IMG/VR virus record: IMGVR_UViG_3300028048_000073
Coordinates: 62,660 to 126,659 of that record
Source of the DNA: a virus
Direction: 5' to 3' (one strand)
Length of the DNA: 64,000 nucleotides
Shown: positions 10,772-58,115 of the stretch, one piece after another
How positions within the stretch are numbered: position 1 is the first letter of the stretch
Layout: each line of letters opens with the position of its first letter
Position numbers and translations under genes: made by a program
Notes under the pieces: model-generated
Told to the model about the DNA's origin: nothing
The model's input: only the letters and a program-made list of their open reading frames with translations
Database searches by the model: none

Positions 10772-10789
10772 GTCTTTTCTCCTTTAAAA

Positions 10790-11131: not shown

Positions 11132-11150
11132 CTTTTTAAAAACCTCTTTC

Positions 11151-11195
11151 TTAACTTTCTATATATATTATAACATATATTTTTTTAAAAATCAA
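11151..11195 (-). promoter_or_regulatory. Conserved early promoter
   Basis: The reverse complement reads TTGATT-N17-TATAAT immediately followed by ATATATAGAAAGTTAAG. Confidence 0.6.
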
Positions 11196-24363: not shown

Positions 24364-24921
24364 TTACTGCTTTGACATACTGCGATATTTTTCTTTTCCT
24401 TTTTTTATATCTTCAAAAACCTGCTCAATATTTACGGGAAAGCAGTTATGTGAATCTACACCTGCATGGTAACAATAAGGTATATTAGAAAAACTATCTT
24501 TCTGGTGAGTATGCCCATGAAGATTCCAAACATTGTCAAAGGTCATATTCCCAACAACTGTAGGATAATGGGTACAAAGAAAAGCTATTTTTTTATGTTT
24601 TAAGCGATAACCAAACTGAATTTCTGCTGTATTGGAAAGCTGCTTAATTGCTTCTATCTTTTTATCTCCATCGTGATTCCCAATAGCATAATGAATCTGC
24701 CCATTTAATCTGCTAACCATCTCAAGACTTTGTTCCTTATTGGTTCCAAGAAACACATCGCCAAGATTATATACGATATCATCTTTTTGAACAATGCTGT
24801 TCCACCTTTCTATGAGTGCTTCATTCATTTCTTGCACTGATTCAAACCCACGGGCTTTCCATATGAAATCTTTATCGTGATTAAAATGCTAATGAAGATC
24901 TGATGTAAACCAGATCGCCAT
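24364..24921 (-). CDS. Calcineurin-like metallophosphoesterase with an in-frame TAG at 24889-24891. It is either a pseudogene or translated by readthrough
   Basis: Reading upstream from the GTG at 24837 gives MAIWFTSDLH-TAG-HFNHDKDFIWKARGFESVQEMNEALIERWNSIV...GNHD...GHTH. All phosphoesterase motifs are present, with the DxH motif upstream of the stop. A ribosome-binding site precedes the ATG at 24921. Confidence 0.6.
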
Positions 24922-24934
24922 AAAATCATCTCCT

Positions 24935-25468
24935 TTATATTAATATTTTTAAATATGTCGTTTCATTTGCTTCATTGTGGTATAAGACGGCTCCCGCATC
25001 ATTAATTACATTAAATCCTTCTTCATTTGTAGGCATTGTAAAATTTTTCTGCATATTATAAATTGCAACATCAGGAACTCTTTCTCTTCCAATTCTTGTT
25101 TTATTCTGTTGAATGCATCTTGTAACGGGGGTTTTAAAGACAACAGCTTCTACAATAATGTTGTTTAGATTTAATTTTTTGAGAACTTTTGCTCTTGACT
25201 TTGCATTAATGTGGGTGGCATCTGCAATAACAATGTCAACATCGTCGTCATTCAAATAGTTCTGAATATTAGAAATGTAATTTTTAAAAACATCAGCTTC
25301 CTTTGAAAAATATCCTTCGCCTTCATCAACTAATGCAAAACGAATTACATCACGGGAAACTATCACGATATGGCGTCCCTGTCTTGTTTGGTCTTTTACA
25401 TACTCTCGTGCCCAAGTTGACTTGCCGCTGCCAGCTATTCCCACAAGCATTAGTAATCTCTTATTCAT
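24935..25468 (-). CDS. Polynucleotide 5'-kinase (T4 Pnk kinase-domain-like P-loop kinase)
   Basis: LLMLVGIAGSGKSTWAREYV matches the T4 Pnk N-terminus (ILTIGCPGSGKSTWAREF). Confidence 0.7.
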   Translation of the reverse strand: MNKRLLMLVGIAGSGKSTWAREYVKDQTRQGRHIVIVSRDVIRFALVDEGEGYFSKEADVFKNYISNIQNYLNDDDVDIVIADATHINAKSRAKVLKKLNLNNIIVEAVVFKTPVTRCIQQNKTRIGRERVPDVAIYNMQKNFTMPTNEEGFNVINDAGAVLYHNEANETTYLKILI

Positions 25469-40024: not shown

Positions 40025-40216
40025 GAGGTAATACCATAAACACTTTTTAAAATGAGCGTTGTTAATTGCCGCTGATGTCGTTATCCTGATATTTGGTATT
40101 TTTGTTCATAATATTAATATGATAGGTGTAATATACCTTTATCATAATGATAATAATCGTATTAAGGTTGTATCAGTTTATAATAGTATTTAAACAATAA
40201 ATAAAGAGGTGATTAT

Positions 40217-40771: not shown

Positions 40772-40773
40772 TC

Positions 40774-41955: not shown

Positions 41956-42046
41956 GAGGTGATATCATGAACACTTTTTCTAAATAAGCTATGTCTATAT
42001 TTTAAAGATAGTCTTTAATTAATATATATAAAGAAGGTGAAAAATT

Positions 42047-46551: not shown

Positions 46552-46561
46552 GGAGTGCAAA

Positions 46562-47353
46562 ATGGAGCGGATATATAAAACGCTTGTTCTCGACTTCAAC
46601 TCGAATGCCTCTCTATATATTAGAAAATTTTTAAAAAGAGGAGATTATATATTTGATAAAGAGTACGCTAAACCTGGACAACTTTTAGTTGGTTTTTCTT
46701 GGAGTGAAACAGAGTTTTCACATATAAACACTAAAACAGGCACCAACGCAATACATGTAACTCAAGGTGGCTACACTTTTGCTACAGATTGGCAAACAAG
46801 TGGAGCTAATTACACTGAATTTGTAAAAGAATGGGCAGATGGCAATCTCAATAATGAAGATAAAATTGGATATATGGTTACTATTAAAAATAATAAATTA
46901 GAAAAAGCCAACGAAAACGACCACATTATTGGTGCCACTTCTGGCAATCCAGCGATTGTTGGTAATGCAGATGAGTCTTATTATTGGCAATATGAACGGG
47001 ATGCTTTTAATAGAATTATTTATGAAGGAGTCCCTGGTGCAACAACGGCACTTGATGATGAAGGTAATGAGATTACAATAACATCAAATGGAATGGTAAA
47101 ACAGCCAAAAATAAATCCTAATTATAATCCTTCATTAAGAATTTCTTATATAGCACGGGCAGATTGCCCAGAATGGGATTATGTAGGCATGCGGGGTATT
47201 ATTCTTGTTCGTGATGATTGGACCTGTGCCGTGGGGGAATTCTGCAAATGCGGCGGCAATGGCATCGTGACCCATACAAGTGAACAAAGCTTTAATACCT
47301 ATTATGCCATTGAACGCATTAGCAAAAATACAGTATCTATGGAGGTGAAGTAA
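46562..47353 (+). CDS. Tail-fibre-like protein, a second copy of the N-terminal module fused to a different C-terminus
   Basis: Contains FDKEYAKPGQLLVGFSWSETEFSHINTKTG. The duplicated upstream leader and ribosome-binding site are translated as an N-terminal extension, because the ancestral ATG reads ATA. Confidence 0.4.
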   Translation: MERIYKTLVLDFNSNASLYIRKFLKRGDYIFDKEYAKPGQLLVGFSWSETEFSHINTKTGTNAIHVTQGGYTFATDWQTSGANYTEFVKEWADGNLNNEDKIGYMVTIKNNKLEKANENDHIIGATSGNPAIVGNADESYYWQYERDAFNRIIYEGVPGATTALDDEGNEITITSNGMVKQPKINPNYNPSLRISYIARADCPEWDYVGMRGIILVRDDWTCAVGEFCKCGGNGIVTHTSEQSFNTYYAIERISKNTVSMEVK

Positions 47354-47354
47354 T

Positions 47355-48149
47355 ATGGCACTTGTTAGTTTTTATAGGGTTCTTTCAACGTCAAATCTTC
47401 CGACTAATAATAATATAGTAGATGGTGCATTATATTTTGTAGAAGATACGCAGTCTTTTTACAGGGGAATAAAAATAGAAACACCGTCCCAAACAGGCGG
47501 AGACCCAATAATTTCTTATGAGTTAACTCCTGTAAAAGTTTTAATAAACGATATAAATGCAACATTATCTGATGAAGATGTATTAAAAGTAATAACAGAT
47601 GATAGCACTTTACCAGCGGCATCTCGTGAAAAATTAGATAAACCAATGGATACAGAAGCCCTTTATAAAACTTTTTTGACAAGAGGTAAAGAATTTAAAA
47701 TATATTTTGTTCCTGATAGAGATATTGTTACCATTACTGCATATGATGGGAATTCTTATTTTGATGAAAGCACAGGGACATATGGACGGACTATAACTAT
47801 TCCTGACATAGAAGGAACTTTAAATTCTTTAAGCGATACTTTCAAGGACGGAAAAACAATTGTTTTTATAAAGAAAACAGAAATAAAATATGAAATTACT
47901 TCTTTTACTGGCGGGACAGGCGAAATTGACATAGTAGCTTGGGCAGACCTTGAAGAACACTATTTTGGATATGGACACATGATATATCCAGAAGTGAGTA
48001 ACCCAACCTATGACGATAATTCAACAAAATATGATGAATTTATTTATTCTATAGTTGACCAACAATGGGAAAAAATTGGTGACTGGACAGAAGATTTAAG
48101 ACCTCGATGGGAGATTTCAAGACGAAGTTATAACTCAGAAATACAATAA
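47355..48149 (+). CDS. hypothetical structural protein
   Basis: 264-aa ORF. Confidence 0.3.
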   Translation: MALVSFYRVLSTSNLPTNNNIVDGALYFVEDTQSFYRGIKIETPSQTGGDPIISYELTPVKVLINDINATLSDEDVLKVITDDSTLPAASREKLDKPMDTEALYKTFLTRGKEFKIYFVPDRDIVTITAYDGNSYFDESTGTYGRTITIPDIEGTLNSLSDTFKDGKTIVFIKKTEIKYEITSFTGGTGEIDIVAWADLEEHYFGYGHMIYPEVSNPTYDDNSTKYDEFIYSIVDQQWEKIGDWTEDLRPRWEISRRSYNSEIQ

Positions 48150-48251
48150 TGTAATTGGTTATTGGAATAAAAGAGCTTATCGTTATAATTCGGATAACAT
48201 TCAATATGCATTGATTATTAAAACAAACAAACTTGGGATACTTTTTAATAA

Positions 48252-48290
48252 AAAAAGACGGCTTTTAAGCCGTCTTTTCATTTTAGAAGT
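48252..48290. terminator. Bidirectional intrinsic terminator between the convergent late genes and the tRNA block
   Basis: aaaaaagacggcttttaagccgtctttttcatttt. Confidence 0.6.
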
Positions 48291-48388
48291 TTTTCCATTC
48301 ATTTCTATTGTATGAAATTGCACTGCAGTCTACTATTGCGCCATCATTTAATGTTAGTATTAAATGATTTTCGTCATCAATAAAATCA

Positions 48389-48465
48389 GTGGAACGTGAG
48401 GGATTCGAACCCATCTGTCTGTTGATTATGAGTCAACTGCTTTTTCCTCTTAAGCTACCGTTCCA
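48389..48465 (-). tRNA. tRNA-Met/Ile2 (anticodon CAT), atypical T-arm
   Basis: Acceptor stem and D-arm (GCTT/AAGC) are good. The anticodon stem GTTGA/TCAAC encloses the loop CTCATAA. The T-stem has only 3-4 base pairs. Confidence 0.5.
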
Positions 48466-48470
48466 AAATT

Positions 48471-48695
48471 TCATGGCTCAATGATGATAAATGGTTCAAT
48501 AGCCATATAAATATCCTCTTCACTATCTACCCATAGATTTTCAAACTCCATCGCGTGGAGTGCCCCAAGGACAGATTTAGCATTGACTGTAAGACCATTT
48601 CCATCGGTTATTGTAATTCTACCGTTAAGTCTTGCGGCGATAGCTGCAAATTCATTTGCCTGCTTCACTGTATCAATTCTTATTCGATTTCTCAT
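48471..48695 (-). CDS. HPr-like fold protein lacking the active-site His, hypothetical
   Basis: Weak HPr-like pattern: ANEFAAIAARLNGRITITDGNGLTVNAKSVLGAL. Confidence 0.25.
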   Translation of the reverse strand: MRNRIRIDTVKQANEFAAIAARLNGRITITDGNGLTVNAKSVLGALHAMEFENLWVDSEEDIYMAIEPFIIIEP

Positions 48696-48822
48696 ATTAT
48701 AATCTCCTTTAAATTATCTGTAGGGGACTAATTAGTCGATTGGTGGAAGATGTCGGAATCAAACCGCTCCCCGATGTCCCAAACATCGGATGCTATCATC
48801 ACACCCCATCCTCCATATAAAG

Positions 48823-48895
48823 TGACTCCTGCGGGACTCGAACCCAGCGTCTCTGATGTGAAAGACCAGCGTCTTTGCCTCTTGACTAAGGAGCC
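48823..48895 (-). tRNA. tRNA-Glu (anticodon TTC)
   Basis: Cloverleaf with the anticodon loop CTTTCAC and the T-loop TTCGAGT. Confidence 0.65.
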
Positions 48896-49175
48896 ATAAC
48901 ACCTGAGGTTTCCTAACCAATATCACTATTGTAACTCTAACCTCACAAGAGTTGTATATATTTTAATTGGAGGTAATAATGATTAGTTTTCTAGTCTGCG
49001 AAGAGCGCGTTCAGCTTTACGAATCAATCGTAGATTTTTCATTTCTCCCTTTGCCTTAAGGGCTGCAATGCGATTCTCATAATGTAGCTTATCTCTTATC
49101 ATTTAATTTTCTCTCCTTAATTTCTATAAATATTATATCATAATTTTTTATATTTTACAAATAAGGCTTTATAAA

Positions 49176-49249
49176 AGCTACTGGTCCGATTCGAACGGAC
49201 GTGAACGGTTTACAAGACCGACATACTAGACCCCTATATGACAGTAGCA
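49176..49249 (-). tRNA. tRNA-Thr (anticodon TGT)
   Basis: Acceptor stem GCTACTG/CAGTAGC, anticodon loop CTTGTAA, T-arm GTCCG-TTCGAAT-CGGAC. Confidence 0.6.
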
Positions 49250-49310
49250 TATCGGCTTTAAGGTCAGCTAACCGCACATACTTTTTTACTTGGCTATTTG
49301 CTTTCCAATG

Positions 49311-49385
49311 TGGCACCCGCGGAACGATTCGAACGCTCGATCTTTAGATTCGTAGTCTACTGCTTTTTCCGCTAAGCTACACGGG
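49311..49385 (-). tRNA. tRNA-Arg (anticodon ACG), CCA encoded
   Basis: Anticodon loop CTACGAA, T-arm GAGCG-TTCGAAT-CGTTC, ends in GCCA. Confidence 0.7.
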
Positions 49386-49390
49386 CATAT

Positions 49391-49466
49391 TGGTACGGCG
49401 AGAAGGAATTGAACCCTCGACACGCGCCTTAGAAGGGCACTGTTCTTTCCGCTGAACTACCGCCGC
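49391..49466 (-). tRNA. tRNA-Arg (anticodon TCT), CCA encoded
   Basis: Anticodon stem GTGCC/GGCGC with the loop CTTCTAA. T-loop TTCAATT. Confidence 0.7.
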
Positions 49467-49495
49467 ATATTTTCTTTTCTGGTATTCATTGTTAA

Positions 49496-49741
49496 TTATT
49501 CTAAGTTATTGATGATATTATCAAAATTATCTCTAACTTTAAGTAAGTCTTTTTTAGACATCTGTTTTAATAGCATATCTGACGGTAATCCTATGACTGG
49601 ATTCTCCAGTCCTTTTGTTCGTAAAGCGGCAGTTAAATTATTAAATGCAGAACACGCTTCCTCAACGCTACAGTCATTTAGACTATAATAAAGAACATAA
49701 ATGCTATTTTCCAAAAGAGGAATGTTCTCTATATCAACCAT
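49496..49741 (-). CDS. hypothetical protein
   Basis: 81-aa ORF. Confidence 0.3.
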   Translation of the reverse strand: MVDIENIPLLENSIYVLYYSLNDCSVEEACSAFNNLTAALRTKGLENPVIGLPSDMLLKQMSKKDLLKVRDNFDNIINNLE

Positions 49742-49775
49742 GTTTTAAAGCACCTCTTTTTGAGATTTCATATTC

Positions 49776-50516
49776 TTACCATGCAACATATGTATCAAGA
49801 GTTCCGTACGCACACCCAGAGTCATATACTTTACCTTGCTTACCAAAAGGGGTATCAACTATAGCGCCTTTAGATAATGAAGTCGCGGCAAGACAAATAT
49901 AGTCATTTTCGTCACAGACATATCCATTTTCATCCACATGACGTCCCGGTATACATAGACCGCCGCCCGGCAGTACATTCTGTGAGTACCAAGTCCAACG
50001 CCATCCGCCCCAGTAAATTACACCCGCACTCATAAAATTGGTAGGAGTATATTCTGGAACTGTTAATGGTGAAGTTTCTCTTGGTTTCTCCATATCAGTA
50101 TTTGTATCTTCATCTGTTGCAGGCTCTATATCTTCGGGTGTTAACTCGGGGGATAGAATTTCTGCTGATGAAGTTGTTGTTTCTTCTGTGGCAGGCACTT
50201 CATAATAAGTGATTACCACATTTTCAACATTGTTTTCTTTTGGCTGTTGAGTTGAAACAGTCGAAGACAATGCACTTGATGTAACACTCTGATTTGGCGT
50301 CTTTGAAGTGACATTACTTTCTGCTTTTGAAACAGTAGACGATGTAACTCTACTTGAAGTCATTTCATTCTTTACGCTCGAAGTGTTAATTGTTTTACTG
50401 ACTATTGCATCAGGAGTATCAACCGTTTCAACTTTTTCTGAAACTGCAGGCTTGCCACACCCACATAATACCACTAATAAAATTAATGCAATAGCTCTTG
50501 TAAATAATTGTTTCAT
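49776..50516 (-). CDS. Secreted lipoprotein with a Ser/Thr-rich linker and a C-terminal 3D-domain (MltA/YocH-like) peptidoglycan-hydrolase-type fold
   Basis: Signal peptide with the lipobox LCGCG. C-terminal GVIYWGGWRW...GYVCDENDYICLA...VDTPFG, with conserved Asp residues. Confidence 0.5.
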   Translation of the reverse strand: MKQLFTRAIALILLVVLCGCGKPAVSEKVETVDTPDAIVSKTINTSSVKNEMTSSRVTSSTVSKAESNVTSKTPNQSVTSSALSSTVSTQQPKENNVENVVITYYEVPATEETTTSSAEILSPELTPEDIEPATDEDTNTDMEKPRETSPLTVPEYTPTNFMSAGVIYWGGWRWTWYSQNVLPGGGLCIPGRHVDENGYVCDENDYICLAATSLSKGAIVDTPFGKQGKVYDSGCAYGTLDTYVAW

Positions 50517-50682
50517 TTTATTCTCTCCCTTTCTTTTGTGAATACCAGAAAAGGGGCGAAAATAATTGAGGGTCAGATTATTTTCAAGAGTCCATTAAAT
50601 GGAGTAATTTTCTCGCTTCTTATATACCGTTTCCGCACTCGGTCCAAATAGGACAGAAAATTACAAAGACTGTGAACGGATA

Positions 50683-50758
50683 TGGTGCGCGTGGAGGGAA
50701 TTGAACCCTCGACACCGAAATTAAAAGTTTCGTGCTCTGCCAACTGAGCTACACGCGC
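50683..50758 (-). tRNA. tRNA-Lys (anticodon TTT), CCA encoded
   Basis: Perfect cloverleaf: GCGCGTG-TA-GCTCAGTTGGCAGAGC-A-CGAAA-CTTTTAA-TTTCG-GTGTC-GAGGG-TTCAATT-CCCTC-CACGCGC-A-CCA. Confidence 0.9.
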
Positions 50759-51233
50759 ATATTATAGTTGTTATTTGGAAAATTTTAAGGAATATTCCAC
50801 CACAAATTTCATCAAACCTGTTCTATTGGTTGAACGGGACAACTAACTCCGTCACACTATTTACGCAAGTGTTCAACGCTCTGAAAGAGGAAAGAGCGGA
50901 TGAGGGGTGATGCTCCCCCGTATCGAGTTTGGAAGACTCGCATTCTACTGTTGAATTACATCCGCAAAAAGCATCCTTAGGTCGGCTAACCGCGCATTTG
51001 TTGATTGCTGGAATTTTTGCTTTTCCAATACGGGCTTTTGGGGAACCACCCCTTCGACGAGGTTTCTCCCCTCGTAATTATTATCTTGGCGGAAAGCGAA
51101 CCACCAGACTCGTTACGTGATATCGGACGCTAATTGTTGACCCGCAAATTAGTTTAGGACTATAACATCTCGGAGTGCATAGTATTCCGTAGTTTTTCGA
51201 CTGGTGAAGTCAAGGCACTAAAACTTCCTTAAG

Positions 51234-51306
51234 CTCTTGGGGCGGGGCACGATCCCGCGACCTTCAGTTTAACAGACTGTTGCTCTACCAGCTGAGCTAC
51301 CCAAGA
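51234..51306 (-). tRNA. tRNA-Asn (anticodon GTT), with a non-canonical T-loop
   Basis: GCTCAGCTGGTAGAGC D-arm, anticodon loop CTGTTAA, T-arm GCGGG-ATCGTGC-CCCGC, and a U1-A72 pair. Confidence 0.6.
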
Positions 51307-51313
51307 ATATAAG

Positions 51314-51387
51314 TGGTAGAGGGTAGAGGTTACGCTCCTCTGCCTCAAGGGTCAAAGCCTTGCGCGCTACTATTACGCCAACCCTCC
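51314..51387 (-). tRNA. tRNA-Gln (anticodon TTG), with a non-canonical T-loop
   Basis: Anticodon stem CAAGG/CCTTG with the loop CTTTGAC. T-arm AGAGG-AGCGTAA-CCTCT. G1-U72. CCA encoded. Confidence 0.6.
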
Positions 51388-51465
51388 ATATAAAAGCAGG
51401 ATTTTTTACAACTTACCTGCATAATGTTGGAAAAGGTGGTATCATATATTTGTACTCAATAATAG

Positions 51466-51537
51466 CGGTTCTAAGGAGAGTTGAACTCCTGTATCCAATG
51501 TGATAGGCGGATGTAATGACCGTTATACGATAGAACC
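51466..51537 (-). tRNA. tRNA-like gene with a degenerate anticodon arm; possibly a pseudo-tRNA
   Basis: Perfect acceptor stem (GGTTCTA/TAGAACC) and T-arm (AGGAG-TTCAACT-CTCCT), but the anticodon stem has only 2-3 base pairs. Confidence 0.3.
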
Positions 51538-51589
51538 AAATCTAATCGGTTTAGGTTTTTCCTCCGCGACGATACCGAAAAACTGGAGG

Positions 51590-51665
51590 TGGTTGCAGTG
51601 ACGAGATTCGAACTCGTGATTTACAGCTTATGAGGCTGTCGACGTAACCGCTGGTCTACACTGCG
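51590..51665 (-). tRNA. tRNA-Met (anticodon CAT), initiator-like with a C1xA72 mismatch
   Basis: Anticodon stem ACAGC/GCTGT with the loop CTCATAA. T-arm ACGAG-TTCGAAT-CTCGT. 5'-CGCAGTG and CACTGCA-3' leave positions 1 and 72 unpaired. CCA encoded. Confidence 0.65.
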
Positions 51666-51694
51666 ATATCTGCTTTTGTTTTTTAATTCTCTCA

Positions 51695-51737
51695 AACTTT
51701 CTATATATATTATATCAAATTTTTTGAGAATTTTCAA
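51695..51737 (-). promoter_or_regulatory. Conserved early promoter driving the tRNA-Met gene
   Basis: The reverse complement reads TTGAAA-N17-TATAAT-ATATATAGAAAGTTTGAG. Confidence 0.6.
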
Positions 51738-51982
51738 GTTGGTTTTCTTTATCTTGCTAAAGGCGCCTCGCTGCAAGCTGGTTGTCTGGGGGTTTCTCGC
51801 CCTCACCCCTCTGGTAGTTTTCCTTCTCCTAATAACGGCTCGTTTTCCAAAGCTGGAGGAAGTTTCTTTCTGGTTAATACTTCCAAATACCACTCTTCTT
51901 GTTTAATGTCGAAAAGAGCAAAAGTTGACAAGTTGGTTTATTTTAATGTCTGATGGGTAACAACCATATCCCGATTTGACAA

Positions 51983-52056
51983 TGGAGCAGAGAATGGGAG
52001 TCGAACCCATCTGAAATGTTTTGCAGACATTTACCTGACCGCTCGGACATCTCCGC
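51983..52056 (-). tRNA. tRNA-Cys (anticodon GCA), CCA encoded
   Basis: Anticodon stem AATGT/ACATT with the loop CTGCAAA. T-arm ATGGG-TTCGACT-CCCAT. Confidence 0.7.
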
Positions 52057-52070
52057 ATATTTATTTTTTT

Positions 52071-52116
52071 CTTAACTTTCTATATATATTATAACAAATT
52101 TTTTTAGATTTTTCAA
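52071..52116 (-). promoter_or_regulatory. Conserved early promoter driving tRNA-Cys
   Basis: TTGAAA-N17-TATAAT-ATATATAGAAAGTTAAG. Confidence 0.6.
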
Positions 52117-52332
52117 ATAAGGTTTTTTCGCGGAGTGCGGTGGGGAAAATCCCAAGCGCCCGCACTCCCCAATCGTTGTACAACTAATTTGGCTGTCTTA
52201 CAAGTAGCCAAGGGAATCAAACCCCACAGGACTGTTCTTCAACTTTTTTACGCCATAACGTTGCGCCAGAGTTTGCCAACAATAAAATCAACTCTCTGAT
52301 AAACGGCACCCTTGTCCCTATGAGTGCTGGGG

Positions 52333-52394
52333 GAACATTTATACAGCCGTTCCATACACTGAGGAACATTTATACAGCCGTTCCATACACTGAT
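52333..52394. repeat. Tandem direct repeat of 2 x 31 bp, each unit a hairpin, directly downstream of the tRNA-Ser 3' end
   Basis: GAACATTTATACAGCCGTTCCATACACTGA(G/T) appears twice in tandem. Each unit contains GGAAC...GTTCC. Confidence 0.6.
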
Positions 52395-52484
52395 TGGCAC
52401 TAAGGGTGGGATTTGAACCCACGGACCTATTACAGTCGGGAATTTTCAAGATTCCTACATTAAGCCAGACTCTGACACCTTAGC
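52395..52484 (-). tRNA. tRNA-Ser (anticodon TGA), class II with a long variable arm, CCA encoded
   Basis: Anticodon stem GGAAT/ATTCC with the loop CTTGAAA. A 17-nt variable arm. T-arm TGGG-TTCAAAT-CCCA. Confidence 0.8.
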
Positions 52485-52838
52485 ATATTATGTGGATTTT
52501 AGTGGCGGAGATTATCCACGGAACTCTATACTTTTAAGGCAAGTAGCCATAGCCTAAGTAGAGGATAGAGGTTATGCTTCTCTTTTACACGATCCTCAAC
52601 CGCGGTCGTGCGTTTTTACTGATTAAACTAATCCTCAATATAGTGCCAACCATTTCCTATTGGCATGGAGTAGGTTTTCATCTCCCATATGTCCGCAAAC
52701 ATATGCCGCTATTCTGGTACGGGTATGCTATATCGGAGTCAAGTACTTGCAGTTCTTCTTTCAAAGTTTTTTTATTCAGTAACAGACCTTTGTAACTTGC
52801 AATCATTACTCATGATCGACACCTAATCCGAAACCCGT

Positions 52839-52924
52839 TGGTGGGTGAAGAGGGTAACGCTCCCACTCGAACCATAGGTACGGGTTTTACAGACCCGCTC
52901 GTCTCTTTAACGATTTACTCACCC
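52839..52924 (-). tRNA. tRNA-Tyr (anticodon GTA), class II, CCA encoded
   Basis: Acceptor stem GGGTGAG/TTCACCC. Anticodon stem CGGGT/ACCCG with the loop CTGTAAA. A 14-nt variable arm. T-arm GTGGG-AGCGTTA-CCCTC with a non-canonical loop. Confidence 0.6.
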
Positions 52925-53149
52925 AGATATCTACTCCGTCGCCCCTCATGGGCTTATTCGGGACGGAAGTCACGCCGAGACCGCTTTACTCCCTCTAAGT
53001 GAAAGCTGTCATAAAAACTTGCGGACGCTTTAGTTTCACCGCATTACCCTTATCTTACTTTGCTATTGCTCAAAGATGACGTCCATTCTTCGTGCGCGGG
53101 GTCATTGGTTAGCCCAACTTTTTATTTTAACATCGCAGTCAACGATGGC

Positions 53150-53284
53150 TGGTAGCGGTAACGGGACTTGAACCCGTACGAGCAACTGCCCAACGGATTT
53201 TTGGAGCCAATACAAAGTGCTGCCCTTTGTTATTGCGACTGCGCATCGGCAAGTCCGTCGTGTCTGCCATTCCACCATACCGCC
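53150..53284 (-). tRNA. tRNA-Leu-like gene of 135 nt with a 49-nt insertion in the anticodon loop at position 34/35; the inferred mature anticodon is TAA
   Basis: The 5' half GGCGGTA-TG-GTGGAATGGCAGACAC-G-ACGGA-CTT and the 3' half AAAA-TCCGT-TGGGCAGTTGCTCGT-ACGGG-TTCAAGT-CCCGT-TACCGCT-A-CCA are canonical. The D-arm is shared with the Leu(TAG) and (CAA) tRNAs. The insertion GCCGATGCGCAGTCGCAATAACAAAGGGCAGCACTTTGTATTGGCTCCA lies between U34 and A35. Confidence 0.5.
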
Positions 53285-53380
53285 ATTTTTATCATCATCA
53301 GTCTTTATTGGCGCAAATGTCTCTAATTTAGAAGTCTTTGCTTGTATAAATGTCGATGATGATTGTTTAGAAAGTTTTTT

Positions 53381-53426
53381 CTTAACTTTCTATATATATT
53401 ATAACAAAAATTTTTAAATTTTTCAA
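53381..53426 (-). promoter_or_regulatory. Conserved early promoter driving the long Leu-like tRNA
   Basis: TTGAAA-N17-TATAAT-ATATATAGAAAGTTAAG. Confidence 0.6.
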
Positions 53427-53537
53427 TTTAAGCATTTTTGTTATCGGTCAGTTTTTTAAGAAACGCCCGCACTGAGGGCGGAAAGCAGTTGCCCAAGTTG
53501 CCCGAGGAATGATCCTCTACGTTTCTCAATAGGCAAG

Positions 53538-53620
<83 letters not shown>

Positions 53621-53806
53621 AAATCCATACGGTAGTTTTACAGGTAAAAACTACCAAATCCCCGTTACCTCGACTTTTCTACCCCGTTTTCAACCTTCAA
53701 ATATGAGGTCTCTCAGCTTGTTCTTCAGCTCAGGCAACTCCACGGCTCTGGTTCTATTTTCATACGACAGCTCAAGCCAGTATCTGACGGGTTTTTAAGT
53801 TTTTTC

Positions 53807-53852
53807 CTTAACTTTCTATATATATTATAACAAAAATTTTTAAATTTTTCAA
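53807..53852 (-). promoter_or_regulatory. Conserved early promoter driving tRNA-Leu(TAG)
   Basis: TTGAAA-N17-TATAAT-ATATATAGAAAGTTAAG. Confidence 0.6.
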
Positions 53853-53882
53853 TTTAAGCATTTTTGTTATAATGCTTAAAAG

Positions 53883-53957
53883 CACGGGACAACAGATTCG
53901 AACTGTTAAACACTTGCCTCTAATGGCAAGCGGCTTTACCAATTTGCCTAATCCCGT
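53883..53957 (-). tRNA. Atypical tRNA with an 8-nt anticodon loop CAUUAGAG; candidate suppressor or frameshift tRNA
   Basis: All other elements have standard lengths: ACGGGAT-TA-GGCAAATTGGTAAAGCC-G-CTTGC-[CATTAGAG]-GCAAG-TGTTT-AACAG-TTCGAAT-CTGTT-GTCCCGT-G. Alternatively the stem is 6 bp and the loop 6 nt. The loop contains both UUA and UAG triplets. A1-U72 and G73 resemble Gln-type identity elements. Confidence 0.55.
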
Positions 53958-54030
53958 ATGTTTCAAACGTGGGCAGATGCTTATTCTAATATATCACATT
54001 AACCACGCTTGTTATAACTGCCCCGTTGAA

Positions 54031-54107
54031 TGGTAGGTTGTTTGGGACTCGAACCCAAAAAATCCACTTTTTGAGAGTGGCGTGTCTGCCAATTGCACCA
54101 ACAACCC
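54031..54107 (-). tRNA. tRNA with anticodon CAA and a Leu-type D-arm but a class I short variable loop, CCA encoded
   Basis: GGGTTGT-TG-GTGCAATTGGCAGACAC-G-CCACT-CTCAAAA-AGTGG-ATTTT-TTGGG-TTCGAGT-CCCAA-ACAACCT-A-CCA. Confidence 0.65.
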
Positions 54108-54204
54108 ATATATGGTAAAGACTGTGCTGTTAAATTTTACACCATATTTGCCTGTCTAAAGCGGGGGTCAAGAACTTTTTAAAGAAAATTCTAAAAACTT
54201 TTTC

Positions 54205-54248
54205 AAATCTTGTATATATATTATATCAAAATTTTTGAAGTTTTTCAA
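54205..54248 (-). promoter_or_regulatory. Conserved early promoter driving tRNA(CAA)
   Basis: TTGAAA-N17-TATAAT-ATATATACAAG. Confidence 0.55.
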
Positions 54249-54339
54249 ATAAAAGAATTTATTATCAAGAACGGTGAGACTTTCCTTCAGCTTTCTCCGA
54301 TTTCATTGATTAAACGCTTAATAATAATTTTCTTTTATT

Positions 54340-54376
54340 GTATATTTATTATAACAAAAATTTTGAAAATTTTCAA
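54340..54376 (-). promoter_or_regulatory. Conserved early promoter
   Basis: TTGAAA-N17-TATAAT. Confidence 0.5.
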
Positions 54377-54574
54377 TTAAGGGGAACCTGTTCATAATCA
54401 TATACTTTATGCCCCGTGCCTTGAGTCTCAAGAAACTCGATCTCTTCTTGCAAAGCTGCATAAGTGGTATAGACTCCATAAATGTATGCTCTGCTATTAG
54501 TATAATCGTGTGTCAAAAGAACCCAAACATAACCTTCTATGTCTTTTCCCATTAATATACCCCATTTCTTTTTT

Positions 54575-54615
54575 TATTGTATAATAATTATACCAAAAAT
54601 TTTTATATTTTTCAA
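54575..54615 (-). promoter_or_regulatory. Conserved early promoter
   Basis: TTGAAA-N17-TATAAT. Confidence 0.5.
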
Positions 54616-54721
54616 ATTGGGTTTTCTTTGTTGAGTTCAGTCTGTCGAAGTCAGGCGCGCCAACGGGAAGGTCATACTCAACTGGCGCCCATATATGAAA
54701 GCTGAAATTTATTTTCAACTT

Positions 54722-54762
54722 TCATTGTATATATATTATATCAAATTTTTTAATATTTTTCA
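54722..54762 (-). promoter_or_regulatory. Conserved early promoter
   Basis: TTGAAA-N17-TATAAT-ATATATACAATG. Confidence 0.5.
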
Positions 54763-54947
54763 AATAAATGATTTAATCTGTCAATGTTATTTATAAAGAG
54801 AGGCTCAACACAAAAACTCCAATCTGGACGTTCAGCTTGAATAGTTTCAATAACTTCAGCAAGTTGAGCTTCCTCATAAACGCCAACAGTATGTGATATG
54901 CCAGAAAATTCATACGGTCTCATTTGAACAAGAAAAACTCTATTCAT
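54750..54947 (-). CDS. small hypothetical protein
   Basis: 65-aa ORF downstream of a promoter copy. Confidence 0.3.
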   Translation of the reverse strand: MNRVFLVQMRPYEFSGISHTVGVYEEAQLAEVIETIQAERPDWSFCVEPLFINNIDRLNHLFEKY

Positions 54948-54961
54948 AAAACGCTCCTTTT

Positions 54962-55004
54962 TTTATTGTATATATATTATATCAAAATTTTTGATAATTT
55001 TCAA
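54962..55004 (-). promoter_or_regulatory. Conserved early promoter
   Basis: TTGAAA-N17-TATAAT-ATATATACAAT. Confidence 0.5.
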
Positions 55005-55063
55005 ATTTTTTGTATTTTAATATAAAGTTTTTCAAAGCTACATTAAACATTTTTGCCCACGGT

Positions 55064-55357
55064 TTAATCACCAACATAAAATTTTTTTTCTCTTGCTATT
55101 CTATTAATTGTGTTTTTAAAGCGTCGCATATCTGACTGCTTCCGCCATTTAAATAAAAGCACACCTTTTTTTGAAAGATATAGAACTTCTGCATGAAAAG
55201 TTTCAACCAATAGCTTGACATATTCAGCAGGCGAAATTTCAAGCAGTCTAGGCACAATCCACCACATAGCGTATTTTAAACCATGAGATACATTATTGCA
55301 ATGCCAAGTTCCCAATGCAGCATCTTGCCATTCTGTCATTTTATATATTTCTTTCAT
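55064..55357 (-). CDS. hypothetical protein
   Basis: 97-aa ORF. Confidence 0.3.
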   Translation of the reverse strand: MKEIYKMTEWQDAALGTWHCNNVSHGLKYAMWWIVPRLLEISPAEYVKLLVETFHAEVLYLSKKGVLLFKWRKQSDMRRFKNTINRIAREKKFYVGD

Positions 55358-55366
55358 AATATAACC

Positions 55367-55666
55367 TCACTTTCTGCGGCAAGACTTTTTCCAATAGGCG
55401 TAATAATCTTCTTCTGTCGGATATTCTTTATGAAAATAATGATATCCTATTTGATGTGTTAATCGCCAATAGTATTTTTTAGCTTCTCGCCATGAGTAGT
55501 AATAAGGAGAATATCCCCAATAGTCAATAACATACTTTTTATATGCCGAACCATTTGCGGGGGTCTCCTTGTTTTTCATATGTCTAAAACGACGATTTCT
55601 TTCACGACGAGAGTGATGCCTACTACCCCATCTTTCAACAGGATGCTTTCTATAAGACCTACTCAT
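55367..55666 (-). CDS. small basic protein rich in Arg, Tyr and Trp, hypothetical
   Basis: 99-aa ORF. Confidence 0.3.
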   Translation of the reverse strand: MSRSYRKHPVERWGSRHHSRRERNRRFRHMKNKETPANGSAYKKYVIDYWGYSPYYYSWREAKKYYWRLTHQIGYHYFHKEYPTEEDYYAYWKKSCRRK

Positions 55667-55685
55667 AAGAAGACCCCCTTTAACG

Positions 55686-55970
55686 TTATTCTATCCGCGC
55701 CCCCAAAGCTCTTATCATCGCTTCAATATCAGCTTTTTCTGCATCAGTAGGAGCTGTGAAATCAATATTTATTTCTTTTGCGGCGGGAGCCTCTTTAGCG
55801 CTGCCACCAAGCAAATTTTTTGCAGCCGTCATTTGAATCTTAATTTCAACTGTTTCACCATTCTCTTGCCACGGAATACGCAAGATTTTTGCATCTTCCA
55901 TAAATGAGTTGGGAAAAGTTTCCTTTAACTTTTCCAAAATTTCCTGCTTGGCTTGACTACCTTTTACCAT
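55686..55970 (-). CDS. hypothetical protein
   Basis: The start is taken at the internal Met MVKGSQ to avoid a 77-nt overlap. Confidence 0.3.
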   Translation of the reverse strand: MVKGSQAKQEILEKLKETFPNSFMEDAKILRIPWQENGETVEIKIQMTAAKNLLGGSAKEAPAAKEINIDFTAPTDAEKADIEAMIRALGARIE

Positions 55971-56214
55971 TCTTCTGTACCCCTTCCATCCCTTCAATCC
56001 ATGACATTTCGCAAATATCTTGTACAGCATCATCCATATCCGTTACAATGAGTTCCATTGAAACCATTGAGATATCATCTTCGCCATAATAGTGACAAAG
56101 ATGCTCTAATGCCTCATTATAGGTACAGCCAAAAGTGATACCTTTAGCCTCTGCTATACTTCCATTCTTCTTCGTTTCATCATAGAATTGGACATAATAC
56201 CTATAAAAATACAT
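55957..56214 (-). CDS. hypothetical acidic protein
   Basis: 85-aa ORF. Confidence 0.3.
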   Translation of the reverse strand: MYFYRYYVQFYDETKKNGSIAEAKGITFGCTYNEALEHLCHYYGEDDISMVSMELIVTDMDDAVQDICEMSWIEGMEGVQKNGKR

Positions 56215-56228
56215 TCGGAAATCTCCTT

Positions 56229-56274
56229 TCCTTAACTTTCTATATTTATTATATCAAATTTTTTTAGAATTATC
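56229..56274 (-). promoter_or_regulatory. Conserved early promoter with a TTGATA -35 variant
   Basis: TTGATA-N17-TATAAT-AAATATAGAAAGTTAAGGAAAGGAG. Confidence 0.5.
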
Positions 56275-57069
56275 AATTATGAGTCCCGCCTTTTTCAAAG
56301 TTCCGCCCAATTCAAGACATCTGTCACATATGCGGCAGGCGCCTGTGCGTAGACAACGCAAGCGGCAATCGATACGAGCCTCCGCAAATTGCTTAATGAT
56401 ATATCGACTATCTATTGGCTGTTTAAGTCCAATGATAATTTCCTGCAACTCGCCAAACCACTTCTTGTCTTTGGCATATATCTTATAATAAACTGATTGT
56501 TCTGTTAGCTTCTCTTTGAAATAAAATTCACAAATGTCAAGAGAATCATCATATGTAACGATATCTTCGGGACGTATGAAAAAAGAATGTAAGTCATAAA
56601 TAGGAAGTTCCTGCTGTGCTATATTTGGAAAGGTTCTGGTCTTTATGTTGCGGCTATGGCAAAATTTACCAACCTCTACCATATCAAAACCAAGAGCTTC
56701 AGTGACATAAATATCTGAAACGCCAAATTCCGCTTGTGTACGGAGTTTCAGCCATGTGTTTGCCATGTCAATGAAAAAATAATCAATTCCCGCATCCTTA
56801 AACGGTTTAATGTCGTCAAGATTTTCACATTCTCTTGGAAGCAAAATAGCGAAATTGATTAGATTCATCTCTTGCTTTAGCGCAAGGAATACTTTTAAAA
56901 GTCCTTTTTCTGTTAAATGATTTTTATCCATAAGTTTTATAATAATTCTTTGGTTAGGGCGTTTAGAAATAAATGAACCATAGTTATGATTTTCTGTTGT
57001 TTCTATCATAAGTTCATCGACTTCATCCATATAATCCCCGCCAAAGATATAGTCTAGACAATATTTCAT
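56254..57069 (-). CDS. hypothetical protein with a C-terminal Cys cluster
   Basis: C-terminal CRLRCLRTGACRICDRC. The start is taken at MKYCLDY after a ribosome-binding site. Confidence 0.3.
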   Translation of the reverse strand: MKYCLDYIFGGDYMDEVDELMIETTENHNYGSFISKRPNQRIIIKLMDKNHLTEKGLLKVFLALKQEMNLINFAILLPRECENLDDIKPFKDAGIDYFFIDMANTWLKLRTQAEFGVSDIYVTEALGFDMVEVGKFCHSRNIKTRTFPNIAQQELPIYDLHSFFIRPEDIVTYDDSLDICEFYFKEKLTEQSVYYKIYAKDKKWFGELQEIIIGLKQPIDSRYIIKQFAEARIDCRLRCLRTGACRICDRCLELGGTLKKAGLIIDNSKKI

Positions 57070-57134
57070 ACCTTTAACTCCTTTATATAGAAATATGAGG
57101 CGACATTGCTGCCGCCTCTTGTAGGGGGTTATTA

Positions 57135-57521
57135 TCACTCTGCCAGCTTGTAGTGCATTGTACGCTTGCCATCGACGTTGATAGCTGTCTTCTCAACCTC
57201 TCCAGCCTTGAAGAGCTGCCCAAGACGAGCGCTTACCTTTGCACGAGTAATCTCGGGGTCATCGAGACCCATAGCATCCATAATCTGAGGGATTGTCTGA
57301 AACTCGTTTGTCAAAGCACCGTAAACCATGTCACGAAGCTCGTCACCCTCTGCCTTACGAACAGCTGCCTGTGCCTTAGCCTTTGCTGCCTTAGTCTCAA
57401 TCTGCTCAATCTGCTTTGCACAGAACTCCTTAAGCTCTGCTGCGTGCTCCGCGTCCTCAGGAATGTATGTAGCCAGAAGTGCAAACATATCCTTTTTTAC
57501 CATCTTATCAGCCATAATCAC
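57135..57521 (-). CDS. GC-rich Ala/Lys-rich small protein, hypothetical
   Basis: 128-aa ORF. Its composition differs from the neighbouring genes. Confidence 0.3.
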   Translation of the reverse strand: MIMADKMVKKDMFALLATYIPEDAEHAAELKEFCAKQIEQIETKAAKAKAQAAVRKAEGDELRDMVYGALTNEFQTIPQIMDAMGLDDPEITRAKVSARLGQLFKAGEVEKTAINVDGKRTMHYKLAE

Positions 57522-57574
57522 TATCTCCTTTTTCTCTTTTAAATTTTTTGTTTTGTTTGTTTTCTTATCTTTAC

Positions 57575-57612
57575 TGTATTTATATTATACCAAAAATTTT
57601 TATAGAACTCAA
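57575..57612 (-). promoter_or_regulatory. Conserved early promoter with a weak -35
   Basis: TTGAGT-N17-TATAAT. Confidence 0.4.
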
Positions 57613-57618
57613 ATTTTT

Positions 57619-57840
57619 TTAGGGGTTAAGAAGTGAATCAAGTTCTGTGCGGGTCAATGAGTTGTATGTAAGGTTATTGTAATGAAGAACGTCATCTATG
57701 CAGACATTTGGATTTGCGCCATGAGAAATAAGCGAAGCCATATCCTCCCGTGCCTTATTTACCTTGTAGTCATGCTCTTCCGCGGAGTCAAGCATACCGC
57801 AATCCTCCAGCTTAAACATCTCGAATGGTGAATAGAACAT
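57619..57840 (-). CDS. small hypothetical protein
   Basis: 73-aa ORF. Confidence 0.3.
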   Translation of the reverse strand: MFYSPFEMFKLEDCGMLDSAEEHDYKVNKAREDMASLISHGANPNVCIDDVLHYNNLTYNSLTRTELDSLLNP

Positions 57841-57854
57841 ACGTAGCCCTCCTA

Positions 57855-58115
57855 TTAATAATCGCTAAGGTCGAATCCTGCGCAATCATACTTACCGTAA
57901 TCGACTGCTGTTCCTCTTATTGCTTCTGCCGCGCAGTAATTAGCATACATTTCCTCTATCTCCTCGTCAGTGGGGAGGTAAACAAAAGGTGCGTCTGCCG
58001 CCTCATAGTCCTGCATCATTTTTTCGATGTACTCATCGTACTCCTTATCAGATGTAATGCCTGCCTCTGCGCAGAAGATTTCCTCCAGAGTCATATCTTC
58101 GTAATTCTTATTCAT
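57855..58115 (-). CDS. small acidic protein
   Basis: 86-aa ORF. Confidence 0.3.
   Translation of the reverse strand: MNKNYEDMTLEEIFCAEAGITSDKEYDEYIEKMMQDYEAADAPFVYLPTDEEIEEMYANYCAAEAIRGTAVDYGKYDCAGFDLSDY

Follow-up and report, generated by a model that had tools for sequence, protein, structure and literature searches.

A tRNA-top-half-like insert in the anticodon loop of a phage tRNA-Leu(UAA) gene: a candidate minihelix intron

The tRNA-Leu(UAA) genes of cyanobacteria and plastids are interrupted by a group I intron between U34 and A35, while the bulge-helix-bulge (BHB) introns of archaeal and eukaryal tRNA genes are short structured elements of the anticodon loop with a canonical position at 37/38. 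Archaea and eukaryotes are credited with the invention of protein-dependent tRNA splicing, whose origin from RNA-repair enzymes is a hypothesis only, and we know of no EndA-type endonuclease in bacteria. Here we describe a tRNA-Leu(UAA) gene split by a 49-nt insert at the same U34|A35 phosphodiester, on the minus strand of a 64,000-nucleotide stretch of viral DNA (IMG/VR record IMGVR_UViG_3300028048_000073, positions 62,660 to 126,659; hereafter the window). A 2026 survey of bacterial tRNA introns holds that bacteria and their viruses have only introns of the self-splicing kinds, groups I and II (PMC13011429). The full-text literature that we searched, in which subscription journals are mostly not included, contained no report of an insert other than group I in a phage or bacterial tRNA gene.

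Each of the closest described systems shares part of its features with this locus. Besides the tRNA species and the site, the insert has in common with group I tRNA introns mobility, presence/absence polymorphism, exon changes resembling co-conversion, and a setting with many homing-endonuclease genes. Group I tRNA introns, however, exceed 200 nt and contain a P3-P9 core, a G-binding site and a terminal G, whereas the 49-nt insert has none of these; self-splicing by group I chemistry is impossible for it. The BHB introns are likewise short, structured and confined to the anticodon loop, with presumed removal by proteins and joining of the exons by a ligase as the common denominator, and the fungal and plant tRNA ligase combines an Rnl1-type ligase with kinase and phosphoesterase domains, much as in the set of enzymes encoded by this phage. 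They differ from the insert, which stands at 34/35, lacks a BHB and appears as a tRNA-like unit ending in CCA. In tRNA punctuation (bacterial tRNA operons, mitochondria and the MALAT1 mascRNA, with RNase P and RNase Z as the nucleases) a tRNA-like fold sets both cut sites, as we propose here, and the proposed 5' cut at the insert would be a standard RNase P reaction; the present unit, in contrast, lies within the anticodon loop of another tRNA, and its flanks would need religation, which is absent from the known systems. Repair by T4 Pnkp and Rnl1 involves the same kinds of enzyme and the same geometry, a nick in the anticodon loop of a folded tRNA, but that break is inflicted by the host and nothing is removed, whereas the break here would be programmed by the gene and 49 nt would be excised. 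Finally, YrlA, the bacterial Y-RNA-like RNA found with Rsr and RtcB, is also a tRNA-like RNA linked to ligase and repair genes, in phages too. Its anticodon arm is replaced by a Ro-binding helix and is not restorable, whereas exact removal of the insert yields a canonical tRNA, for which an uninterrupted allele exists. The stretch with the tRNA-Leu gene gave no Y-RNA match in Rfam.

The interrupted gene is a real feature of the genome. The Rfam tRNA family RF00005 matched positions 53153-53284(-) with 43.8 bits (gathering score 29), the insert being handled as a loop insertion. ARAGORN did not call the gene in its default mode; with introns allowed, a mode that is prone to spurious nested calls at abutting tRNAs and makes many of them, it reported tRNA-Leu(taa) and placed an intron of 49 nt at position 35, i(35,49). 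When 53202-53250 was removed in silico, the program recognized a canonical tRNA-Leu(taa) of 86 nt. In minus-strand order the 5' part reads GGCGGUA UG GUG-GAAUGGCAGA-CAC G ACGGA CUU; the 49 nt follow, and then AAAA UCCGU U-GGGC-AGUU-GCUC-GU ACGGG-UUCAAGU-CCCGU UACCGCU A CCA. The acceptor strands GGCGGTA/TACCGCT pair, as do those of the anticodon stem, ACGGA/TCCGT, and the 15-nt variable arm, the T arm ACGGG-TTCAAGT-CCCGT, A73 and an encoded CCA are all in place. The anticodon loop as encoded has 56 nt (CTT, the 49 nt and AAAA), with exactly 49 extra bases between U34 and A35; without them the loop is CUUAAAA and the anticodon UAA. An earlier sequence-only reading of this DNA had described the intact class II framework, the restored loop and the 34/35 site, and all three agree with our results, the loop also with an intron-less orthologue described below. 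Its statement that the D-arm 16-mer GTGGAATGGCAGACAC is shared with the neighbouring Leu genes was in error: the 16-mer is missing from them even with 3 mismatches allowed, and only the TGGCAGACAC part is similar. An independent assembly in the European Nucleotide Archive (ENA), L085, is 99.98% identical to the window over 10.8 kb, insert included, and therefore the insert is not an assembly artefact.

The architecture of the insert (Table 1) is that of the top half of a tRNA, to judge from its sequence and its relatives: it appears to mimic an acceptor/T-arm minihelix that ends in NCCA. Seven base pairs start at the first base of the insert, a 5-bp T-like stem is coaxial with them, and the 3' strand runs from one helix to the other without an unpaired base. 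The discriminator-like base and the 3'-CCA coincide with the 3' boundary of the insert. We formulated this design as a template, in which the first 7 nt pair with the 7 nt that precede NCCA and a 5-bp stem with a 7-nt loop lies just inside; the window insert fits it with 0 mismatches. The third base of its loop, GGCAGCA, is C and the fourth a purine. No second copy of the insert occurs in the window when up to 3 mismatches are allowed. The two small hairpins that the sequence-only reading had drawn in the insert both exist; the outer stem GCCGAUG/UAUUGGC and the terminal U-CCA had been overlooked, and with them the minihelix, which is the key mechanistic clue. The primary transcript would thus resemble a small polycistronic tRNA precursor, consisting of a 5' half, a mini-tRNA and a 3' half.

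Comparison with related phages located the insert as a discrete element. We found no close relative of the window among some 50,000 deposited phage genomes, and hence no annotated precedent. Relatives were found through homologues of the ORF at 49776-50516 and their contigs; the ORF at 56254-57138 led to none in IMG/VR, and the contigs obtained for P0001, P0010 and P0012 do not extend to the tRNA-Leu locus. The syntenic contig L208 (ENA) lacks exactly 53202-53250 and has an uninterrupted 86-nt tRNA-Leu(UAA). Outside the anticodon arm its exons are identical to those of the window (25/25 and 36/36, 61 bases), and the downstream flank matches at 168 of 170 positions. Six differences separate the two tRNAs, every one of them inside the anticodon arm, which reads U-AAGGU...ACCUU-UGA in L208 and G-ACGGA...UCCGU-UGG in the window and is completely paired in both. 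This locus comparison, which had been proposed as a check by the sequence-only reading, revealed a precise intron-less allele that is an ordinary tRNA gene. The converse is seen in L240 (Joint Genome Institute, JGI), whose promoter and leader are conserved copies of those of the window and whose downstream region is also as in the window. Its insert is identical at 48 of 49 positions, with one extra U, and its anticodon arm at 25 of 25, while the rest of the tRNA has diverged (21/25 in exon 1 and 24/36 in exon 2; flank 150/167). The changes in the acceptor and T stems of L240 are compensatory, and a G4.U pair in the acceptor-like stem of the window insert is replaced by A-U. Since the two comparisons split the arm from the tRNA body in opposite ways, the anticodon arm and the insert appear to form one cassette with a history of its own, a pattern such as is expected for gene conversion or for homing with co-conversion. 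ARAGORN gave no uninterrupted tRNA-Leu(UAA) in the window or in L240.

The same contigs bear on neighbouring tRNA genes. At 52556-52637(-) lies a tRNA-like sequence, called by neither ARAGORN nor Rfam, that is the orthologue of a tRNA-Ile(GAT) of L208 (L208 1355-1427). It has 7 extra bases at the junction of the D arm and the anticodon stem, and in place of the loop CUGAUAA it has UUGAGGA, a second case of change confined to the anticodon arm. Downstream of tRNA-Leu, 665 nt without an ORF (52485-53149(-)) are 90-99% conserved in L208 and L240. They include a tRNA-Tyr-like sequence at about 52841-52926, for which ARAGORN calls tRNA-Tyr(gta) in L208 (326-411) and nothing in the window; the rest looks structured and matches no Rfam family. 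The tRNA arrays of relatives contain PD-(D/E)XK ORFs (PF11645; L207 7958-8356, L208 7094-7492, L211 57-869 and 1741-2190), which are absent from the window and may be free-standing homing endonucleases that drive the exchange of anticodon-arm cassettes.

Inserts at this position recur. Scanning viral, metagenome and genome collections with the pattern ACGGACUU-N30-60-AAAAUCCGU returned 11 distinct insert-bearing genes, each of which becomes a canonical tRNA-Leu(UAA) upon removal of the insert; ARAGORN made a canonical call after in-silico removal for 11/11 Leu genes and likewise for 5/5 genes of the Gln type described below. Two Leu groups have the minihelix design. One is the family of the window, with L240 and the distant L064, whose 57-nt insert has the acceptor-like stem GCGCUAU/AUAACGC and a T-like hairpin GUAGG-GGCAGCA-CCUAC that is compensatory to that of the window. 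The other is L257, with an insert of unrelated sequence and the same design. L064 contains a second interrupted gene, first flagged by ARAGORN and matched by Rfam as a tRNA with a loop insertion of about 70 nt (39.8 bits). Its U1-A72 pair, G73 and D arm are of the tRNA-Gln type, and its 67-nt insert has the stem CGGAGAA/UUUUCCG, leading to U-CCA, along with D-arm-like and T-arm-like hairpins. Because Gln identity needs U35-G36, this insert must run exactly from the first acceptor-like base to the CCA. A viral scan with the Gln anticodon arm, in which CCA was not part of the pattern, returned only CCA-ended inserts among matches in a tRNA context, and added two insert types of minihelix design, L303/L307/L310 (48 nt) and L320 (62 nt), both ending in A-CCA. 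A further viral scan, GGCAGCAC...CTCCAAAAA, gave chance matches only, among the matches listed, and a tighter version of it returned L064 only.

The CCA-ended inserts at 34/35 of phage tRNA-Leu(UAA) and tRNA-Gln(UUG) all fit the template with at most one mismatch (8/8), a fit reached by 44 of 160,000 shuffled inserts with the CCA kept. In a positional extract (the first 7 and the last 28 bases) 97.6% of the cells pair, compared to 36-48% in slid controls, and both sides change in 11 of the 12 pairs. As the helices of the insert covary, it is under structural selection. Invariant throughout the 7 aligned insert sequences (7/7) are the stem-closing G-C, the C in third place of the loop and the purine in fourth; we take these positions to correspond to G53-C61, C56 and R57 of real tRNAs. 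The T-like loops of relatives are UUCAACU, UUCGAUG and UGCAAAU, and connectors within the family measure 9 to 32 nt. A terminal CCA was present in 8 of 15 distinct inserts in a tRNA context vs 2 of 109 chance matches in the same scans.

Two other kinds of repeated element came to light in these searches. A 28-nt element, AGAGTTTAGAAKTAAACTCATACAGCAA (a hairpin and CAUACAGCAA), lies in or near the anticodon loop of two adjacent tRNA-like genes of L208 (3178-3302 and 3309-3436), just downstream of which is one more copy of the motif CATACAGCAAC; genes of this type also occur at L207 4162-4289 and L210 299-557. The element is absent from the window and constitutes a different insert family, without CCA, and the ARAGORN intron models for both L208 genes are unconvincing. 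In addition, contigs of metagenome-assembled genomes (MAGs) from Victivallales, Kiritimatiellae and Lentisphaeria, and metagenome contigs, contain tandem arrays in which a tRNA-Leu 5' half is combined with a complete anticodon arm ACGGACUU...AAAAUCCGU (L275 901-1193, L277, L273/L274/L276/L278, L224, L244 and L228). The arms enclose GC-rich inserts of 30-54 nt, folded as double or long hairpins with compensatory changes, and many units lack the tRNA 3' half. These arrays may be a separate tRNA-derived repeat or non-coding RNA family of PVC bacteria or their phages.

The window also encodes the kinds of enzyme that a cut anticodon loop would call for (Table 1). The closest structure to its ligase in the Protein Data Bank (PDB) is T4 Rnl1 (2C5U, E 2e-14, residues 33-329), and the kinase-like protein is best matched by T4 polynucleotide kinase (1LY1) and the kinase domain of Clostridium thermocellum Pnkp (4GP7). 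The putative phosphoesterase matched 1XM7 (E 5e-4) and has a homologue near Rnl1 in L064. A role in RNA repair has been described for RlaP (PMC7824862). Elsewhere the association is tighter. In L254/L076 a gap of 18 nt separates the insert-bearing tRNA-Leu from Rnl1, with a T4-type Pnkp next in line, and in L231 Rnl1 is 1.3 kb from the insert-bearing tRNA-Leu; at each of these loci the latter is the only tRNA called by ARAGORN. In L064 and L023, Rnl1 or Pnkp is found within 7-10 kb. None of some 190 chance-match loci has Rnl1, in a comparison where most loci are too short for a fair reading, and tblastn revealed no shared protein, as a candidate endonuclease, beside Rnl1 across loci. In L254 10004-11924 (= L076 189-1977) Rnl1 is itself split into two ORFs, one matching the window protein over residues 2-195 and the other over 207-331. 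The approximately 750 nt between them include an opposite-strand ORF (10521-11327) without a Pfam match and may be an intron or a mobile insertion. Just upstream of the L254 tRNA are an I-TevI-like DNA-binding ORF (8407-9015) and a SegE-like GIY-YIG ORF (5092-6090).

Table 1. Features of the interrupted tRNA-Leu(UAA) locus and RNA-repair genes of the window (window positions)
Feature	Position	Strand	Evidence
Interrupted tRNA-Leu(UAA) gene, class II, 135 nt including the encoded CCA (53152-53150)	53150..53284	-	Rfam, ARAGORN
5' exon, tRNA nt 1-34; ends with ACGGA (53258-53254) and C32-U33-U34 (53253-53251)	53251..53284	-	sequence
49-nt insert GCCGAUGCGCAGUCGCAAUAACAAAGGGCAGCACUUUGUAUUGGCUCCA	53202..53250	-	missing exactly in orthologue L208
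Acceptor-like stem, 5' strand GCCGAUG, begins at insert base 1	53244..53250	-	pairs with UAUUGGC
Connector CGCAGUCGCAAUAA	53230..53243	-	with the preceding G can fold as small hairpin GCG-CAGU-CGC
T-arm-like hairpin CAAAG-GGCAGCA-CUUUG, 5-bp stem, 7-nt loop	53213..53229	-	stem closed by G-C
3' strand of the acceptor-like stem, UAUUGGC, running on directly from the T-like stem (12 stacked bp together)	53206..53212	-	pairing
Unpaired discriminator-like U and CCA, final bases of the insert	53202..53205	-	sequence
3' exon: A35-A38 (53201-53198), UCCGU (53197-53193), 15-nt variable arm, T arm, acceptor 3' strand, A73, CCA	53150..53201	-	sequence
Sigma-70-type promoter, near consensus, TTGAAA-17-TGnTATAAT, about 110 nt upstream of tRNA-Leu	53398..53426	-	sequence
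T4-type RNA ligase 1 (Rnl1) gene, candidate exon sealer	28278..29396	-	PF09511, 47.6 bits (cut-off 28.3)
Polynucleotide 5'-kinase-like P-loop protein, possible end healer	24935..25468	-	Pfam AAA_33, 62.6 bits
Calcineurin-like phosphoesterase, weak assignment, possible 3'-end healer	24364..24837	-	Metallophos_2, 25 bits (below cut-off 27)
RlaP-family nucleotidyltransferase (RNA-ligase-associated Pol-beta)	29579..30334	-	PF10127, 26.5 bits (cut-off 23)

On this basis we propose a pathway for excision and sealing. Transcription would start at the gene's own strong promoter. Acceptor/T-arm minihelices with a 3'-NCCA are RNase P substrates, for which U(-1)/G(+1) is favourable, and host RNase P would cut directly 5' of the minihelix, at U34|G+1, leaving a 3'-OH on the 5' exon. 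A second endonuclease, for which an RNase Z/BN-like, an RNase E-like or a phage-encoded enzyme may be considered, would cut immediately behind the CCA, so that A35 would carry a 5'-phosphate. The exons would stay together through the cloverleaf, and the T4-type Rnl1 of the phage would seal them into the 86-nt tRNA-Leu(UAA). The natural substrate of T4 Rnl1 is a broken tRNA anticodon loop. The kinase and phosphoesterase of the phage would be on hand should the cuts leave 5'-OH or cyclic-phosphate ends; in vitro, a kinase-phosphoesterase (CthPnkp) and T4 Rnl1 can carry tRNA splicing to completion (PMC1920235). As DNA, the insert would travel with the anticodon arm from one phage tRNA-Leu gene to another through gene conversion, and genomes equipped to mend broken anticodon loops would be pre-adapted to tolerate it. 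Removal of the insert to give a working tRNA is somewhat on the probable side. The combined statement, a functional tRNA-Leu(UAA) gene with a horizontally mobile intervening sequence processed according to the RNase P and Rnl1 model, comes close to an even call and a little below it, and the RNase P plus Rnl1 route specifically is put forward as a tentative suggestion.

A number of points weigh against this interpretation. What the sequences show is the gene with its exact boundaries, the intron-less allele, the cassette-like mosaic, the recurrent minihelix-NCCA design and the repair genes, which adjoin such tRNAs in other phages; removal of the insert and every enzymatic step are inferred. 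The weakest link of the pathway is the post-CCA cut: we know of no enzyme that cuts exactly after an internal CCA, and where CCA is part of the tRNA gene, 3' ends are trimmed mostly by exonucleases, a process that would consume the 3' exon. The window loop GGCAGCA lacks U54, U55 and A58 of the T-loop consensus. Energy does not favour the proposed structure either, as it was computed at -39.9 kcal/mol vs -46.1 kcal/mol for the minimum free energy (MFE) structure, which is a non-cloverleaf fold, and the folding z-score of the whole RNA is only -1.4; the proposed fold thus lies some 6 kcal/mol higher than the MFE, and it is comparison, not energy, that supports the structure. Seven other insert families at Leu 34/35 are plain hairpins of 8-13 bp without CCA, with 4-7 unpaired bases before the helix and in some cases T-loop-like motifs. 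For these inserts RNase P is ruled out by the unpaired 5' bases and the missing CCA, so that it cannot account for the whole insert class as a universal mechanism. Nearly all relatives were found by patterns that fix the anticodon stem and the loop halves, and the class-wide conservation of these parts is thus partly ascertainment; two lines of support are independent of it, namely the comparison of the window with L208 and the argument from tRNA identity in the Gln gene of L064. The near-identical inserts of the window and L240 also fit a recent invasion whose fitness cost has yet to be purged. Finally, RNA-repair modules are common in large tRNA-rich phages anyway, where they counter anticodon nucleases (PMC7824862), so that the co-occurrence of inserts and repair genes may be incidental, and most loci are too short to tell.

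One alternative explanation is a selfish or neutral insertion, in which recombination or homing traffic placed a copy of a tRNA-derived fragment in the anticodon loop and left a pseudo-tRNA in a phage that uses the tRNA-Leu(UAA) of its host. Phage tRNA sets are variable, and neighbouring genes are degenerating, as seen in the altered Ile(GAT) orthologue and a tRNA with a 6-nt loop; the inserts of the window and L240, identical at 48 of 49 positions, may have spread recently, the genome has five homing-endonuclease genes, and the gene goes unrecognized by default ARAGORN. Yet the exons are intact in 16/16 insert-bearing genes, and in L240 and L064 compensatory changes preserve the cloverleaf while the genes carry homologous, diverged inserts. 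The helices of the insert covary, the strong dedicated promoter is kept, and neither the window nor L240 has an uninterrupted tRNA-Leu(UAA) in its place. We consider a pseudo-tRNA unlikely. Among the options in the sequence-only reading, a disrupted pseudo-tRNA is accordingly disfavoured though it keeps some probability, and a novel mini-intron or processing element is the best fit to the comparative evidence (presence/absence, cassette transfer, compensatory exons in three lineages and conserved structure). Alternatively, the RNA might function as something other than an adaptor, with the unspliced chimera or the excised CCA-minihelix acting as a decoy or inhibitor of anticodon nucleases or acceptor-end toxins within an Rnl1/Pnkp counter-defence module. 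The tight adjacency to RNA-repair genes in L254 and L231, where the gene is the sole tRNA-like gene, and the conservation of the minihelix under covariation would suit such a role; passages of the literature also describe tRNA-mimicking Y-RNA-like RNAs encoded with RNA ligases in bacteria (PMC7824862) and defence toxins aimed at the tRNA CCA end (toxSAS). A decoy would not, however, require intact outer exons, nor boundaries that restore a perfect 7-nt loop matching the identity of the outer tRNA, in the Gln case too, and the same locus in L208 has an ordinary intron-less tRNA-Leu(UAA). We regard a non-adaptor RNA as quite improbable; a decoy role of the excised minihelix alone would be compatible with splicing and is no true alternative to it.

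Splicing might also proceed by healing and sealing of the fungal and plant type, with a metal-independent endoribonuclease, either host anticodon-nuclease-like or encoded by the phage, cutting both junctions by measuring from the tRNA body. Some anticodon nucleases, such as colicin E5 and zymocin, cleave at 34/35. The phage itself encodes a PNK-like kinase, a putative phosphoesterase and Rnl1, the order in L254 is tRNA, Rnl1, Pnkp, and the scheme would also cover the hairpin-type inserts without CCA; the in vitro splicing of tRNA halves by CthPnkp and T4 Rnl1 speaks for it as well (PMC1920235). It leaves the exact +1...NCCA delimitation of the inserts unexplained, though, and no candidate endonuclease was found in the window or as a protein common to the loci, which makes it distinctly unlikely in our assessment. 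Hardly credible, finally, is a degenerate group I intron, an archaeal-type BHB intron or a small self-cleaving ribozyme, despite the site shared with the cyanobacterial and plastid tRNA-Leu(UAA) intron and a length that BHB introns or small ribozymes can have. As to group I, 49 nt leave no room for the core, the last base is A and not G, and Rfam, its tRNA model apart, matches nothing in this stretch at E <= 1, having returned no group I match at that threshold in 46000-58000 and none at gathering score in the whole window; GCCGAUG, a potential guide, pairs with the insert's own 3' part and not with the exon CUU. The sequence-only reading had rightly judged the insert far too short for such an intron, and of the link that it drew to group I introns the common site stands and nothing beyond it. 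A BHB, with its 3-nt bulge, 4-bp helix and 3-nt bulge, could be drawn for none of the 11 Leu inserts, in which predicted and comparative structures place a 3 x 8-nt internal loop between the anticodon stem and the insert helix. Pfam identified no EndA/Sen-type endonuclease domain in the approximately 57 ORFs of the window, and the phage is bacterial in type (sigma-70 promoters, NAD-dependent ligase, gyrase and peptidoglycan amidases of the amidase/SH3 lysin kind). Hammerhead, twister, pistol, hatchet and HDV-like/theta ribozymes gave no Rfam match at E <= 1; the CUGAUGA...GAAA core of the hammerhead is missing from the insert, and its helices and strands come in an order that does not fit the HDV-like fold of the theta ribozymes associated with tRNAs in gut phages (PMC10879173). 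The insert families are, moreover, too different in sequence to share a single ribozyme.

The surroundings of the gene are unusual in further respects. Across the tRNA array at 49099-55017(-) there are about 10 copies of a 50-80-nt repeat with a near-consensus extended -10 promoter, TTGAAA-17-TGTTATAAT, one of them holding the tRNA-Leu promoter; two (53365-53444 and 53791-53870) are 94% identical. Because the copies precede single tRNAs or small groups, many short transcription units seem to make up the array. The tRNA at 53882-53957(-) (Rfam, 47.1 bits) has a 6-nt anticodon loop, AUUAGA, and is labelled 'tRNA-??? anticodon (ta)' by ARAGORN; other tRNAs with odd loops occur at L023 7421-7508, L081 20250-20320 and in L303 ('tttt', 8-nt loop). 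A tRNA with anticodon CTA, an amber suppressor that ARAGORN labels 'Pyl', lies at 49391-49466(-), and similar ones occur in L226 and L310, a hint that these phages may recode TAG. A 31-nt unit, GGAACATTTATACAGCCGTTCCATACACTGA, is perfectly duplicated in tandem at 52332-52393, a site just upstream of tRNA-Ser as seen on the plus-strand map. Five minus-strand ORFs resemble homing endonucleases, three GIY-YIG and two LAGLIDADG (1082-1816, 4694-5461, 11846-12880, 8318-9343 and 19304-20293). They lie among replication genes (DnaB, gyrA/gyrB, NAD-dependent ligase), some of them between gene fragments, and introns or inteins in those genes are likely, although Rfam found no group I intron at gathering score; the earlier description of the genome as rich in group I introns found no confirmation in the window in spite of these five genes. 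A full-length pyruvate-formate-lyase-like glycyl radical enzyme (33640-35853(-), 638 bits), a BspA-type leucine-rich-repeat protein (36712-38211(+)) and three tandem DUF6273 paralogues (38849-43231(+)) suggest an anaerobic, gut-type habitat.

If the proposed pathway is right, the inserts would constitute a third mechanistic class of tRNA introns and the first non-self-splicing introns in bacteria and phages, namely minihelix introns removed through RNase P, a post-CCA cut and Rnl1, a view that we consider possible more than probable. Such introns would spread between phage tRNA genes as anticodon-arm cassettes, and our proposal is that they are tolerated because the phage already carries enzymes for anticodon-loop repair. 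The inserts might delay U34 modification or maturation and so evade modification-dependent anticodon nucleases, or might release a CCA-minihelix decoy. Because default tRNA finders miss such genes, phage tRNA repertoires and the inferences on code usage drawn from them are incomplete. The combination of a minihelix with a ligase could also serve as a design for conditional tRNAs. T4-type Rnl1 and Pnkp would, if the pathway is true, have a second role beyond the repair of nuclease damage, the inserts would be a new kind of mobile element, and RNase P-type excision with sealing by a repair ligase would represent a living example of the transition from RNA repair to splicing.

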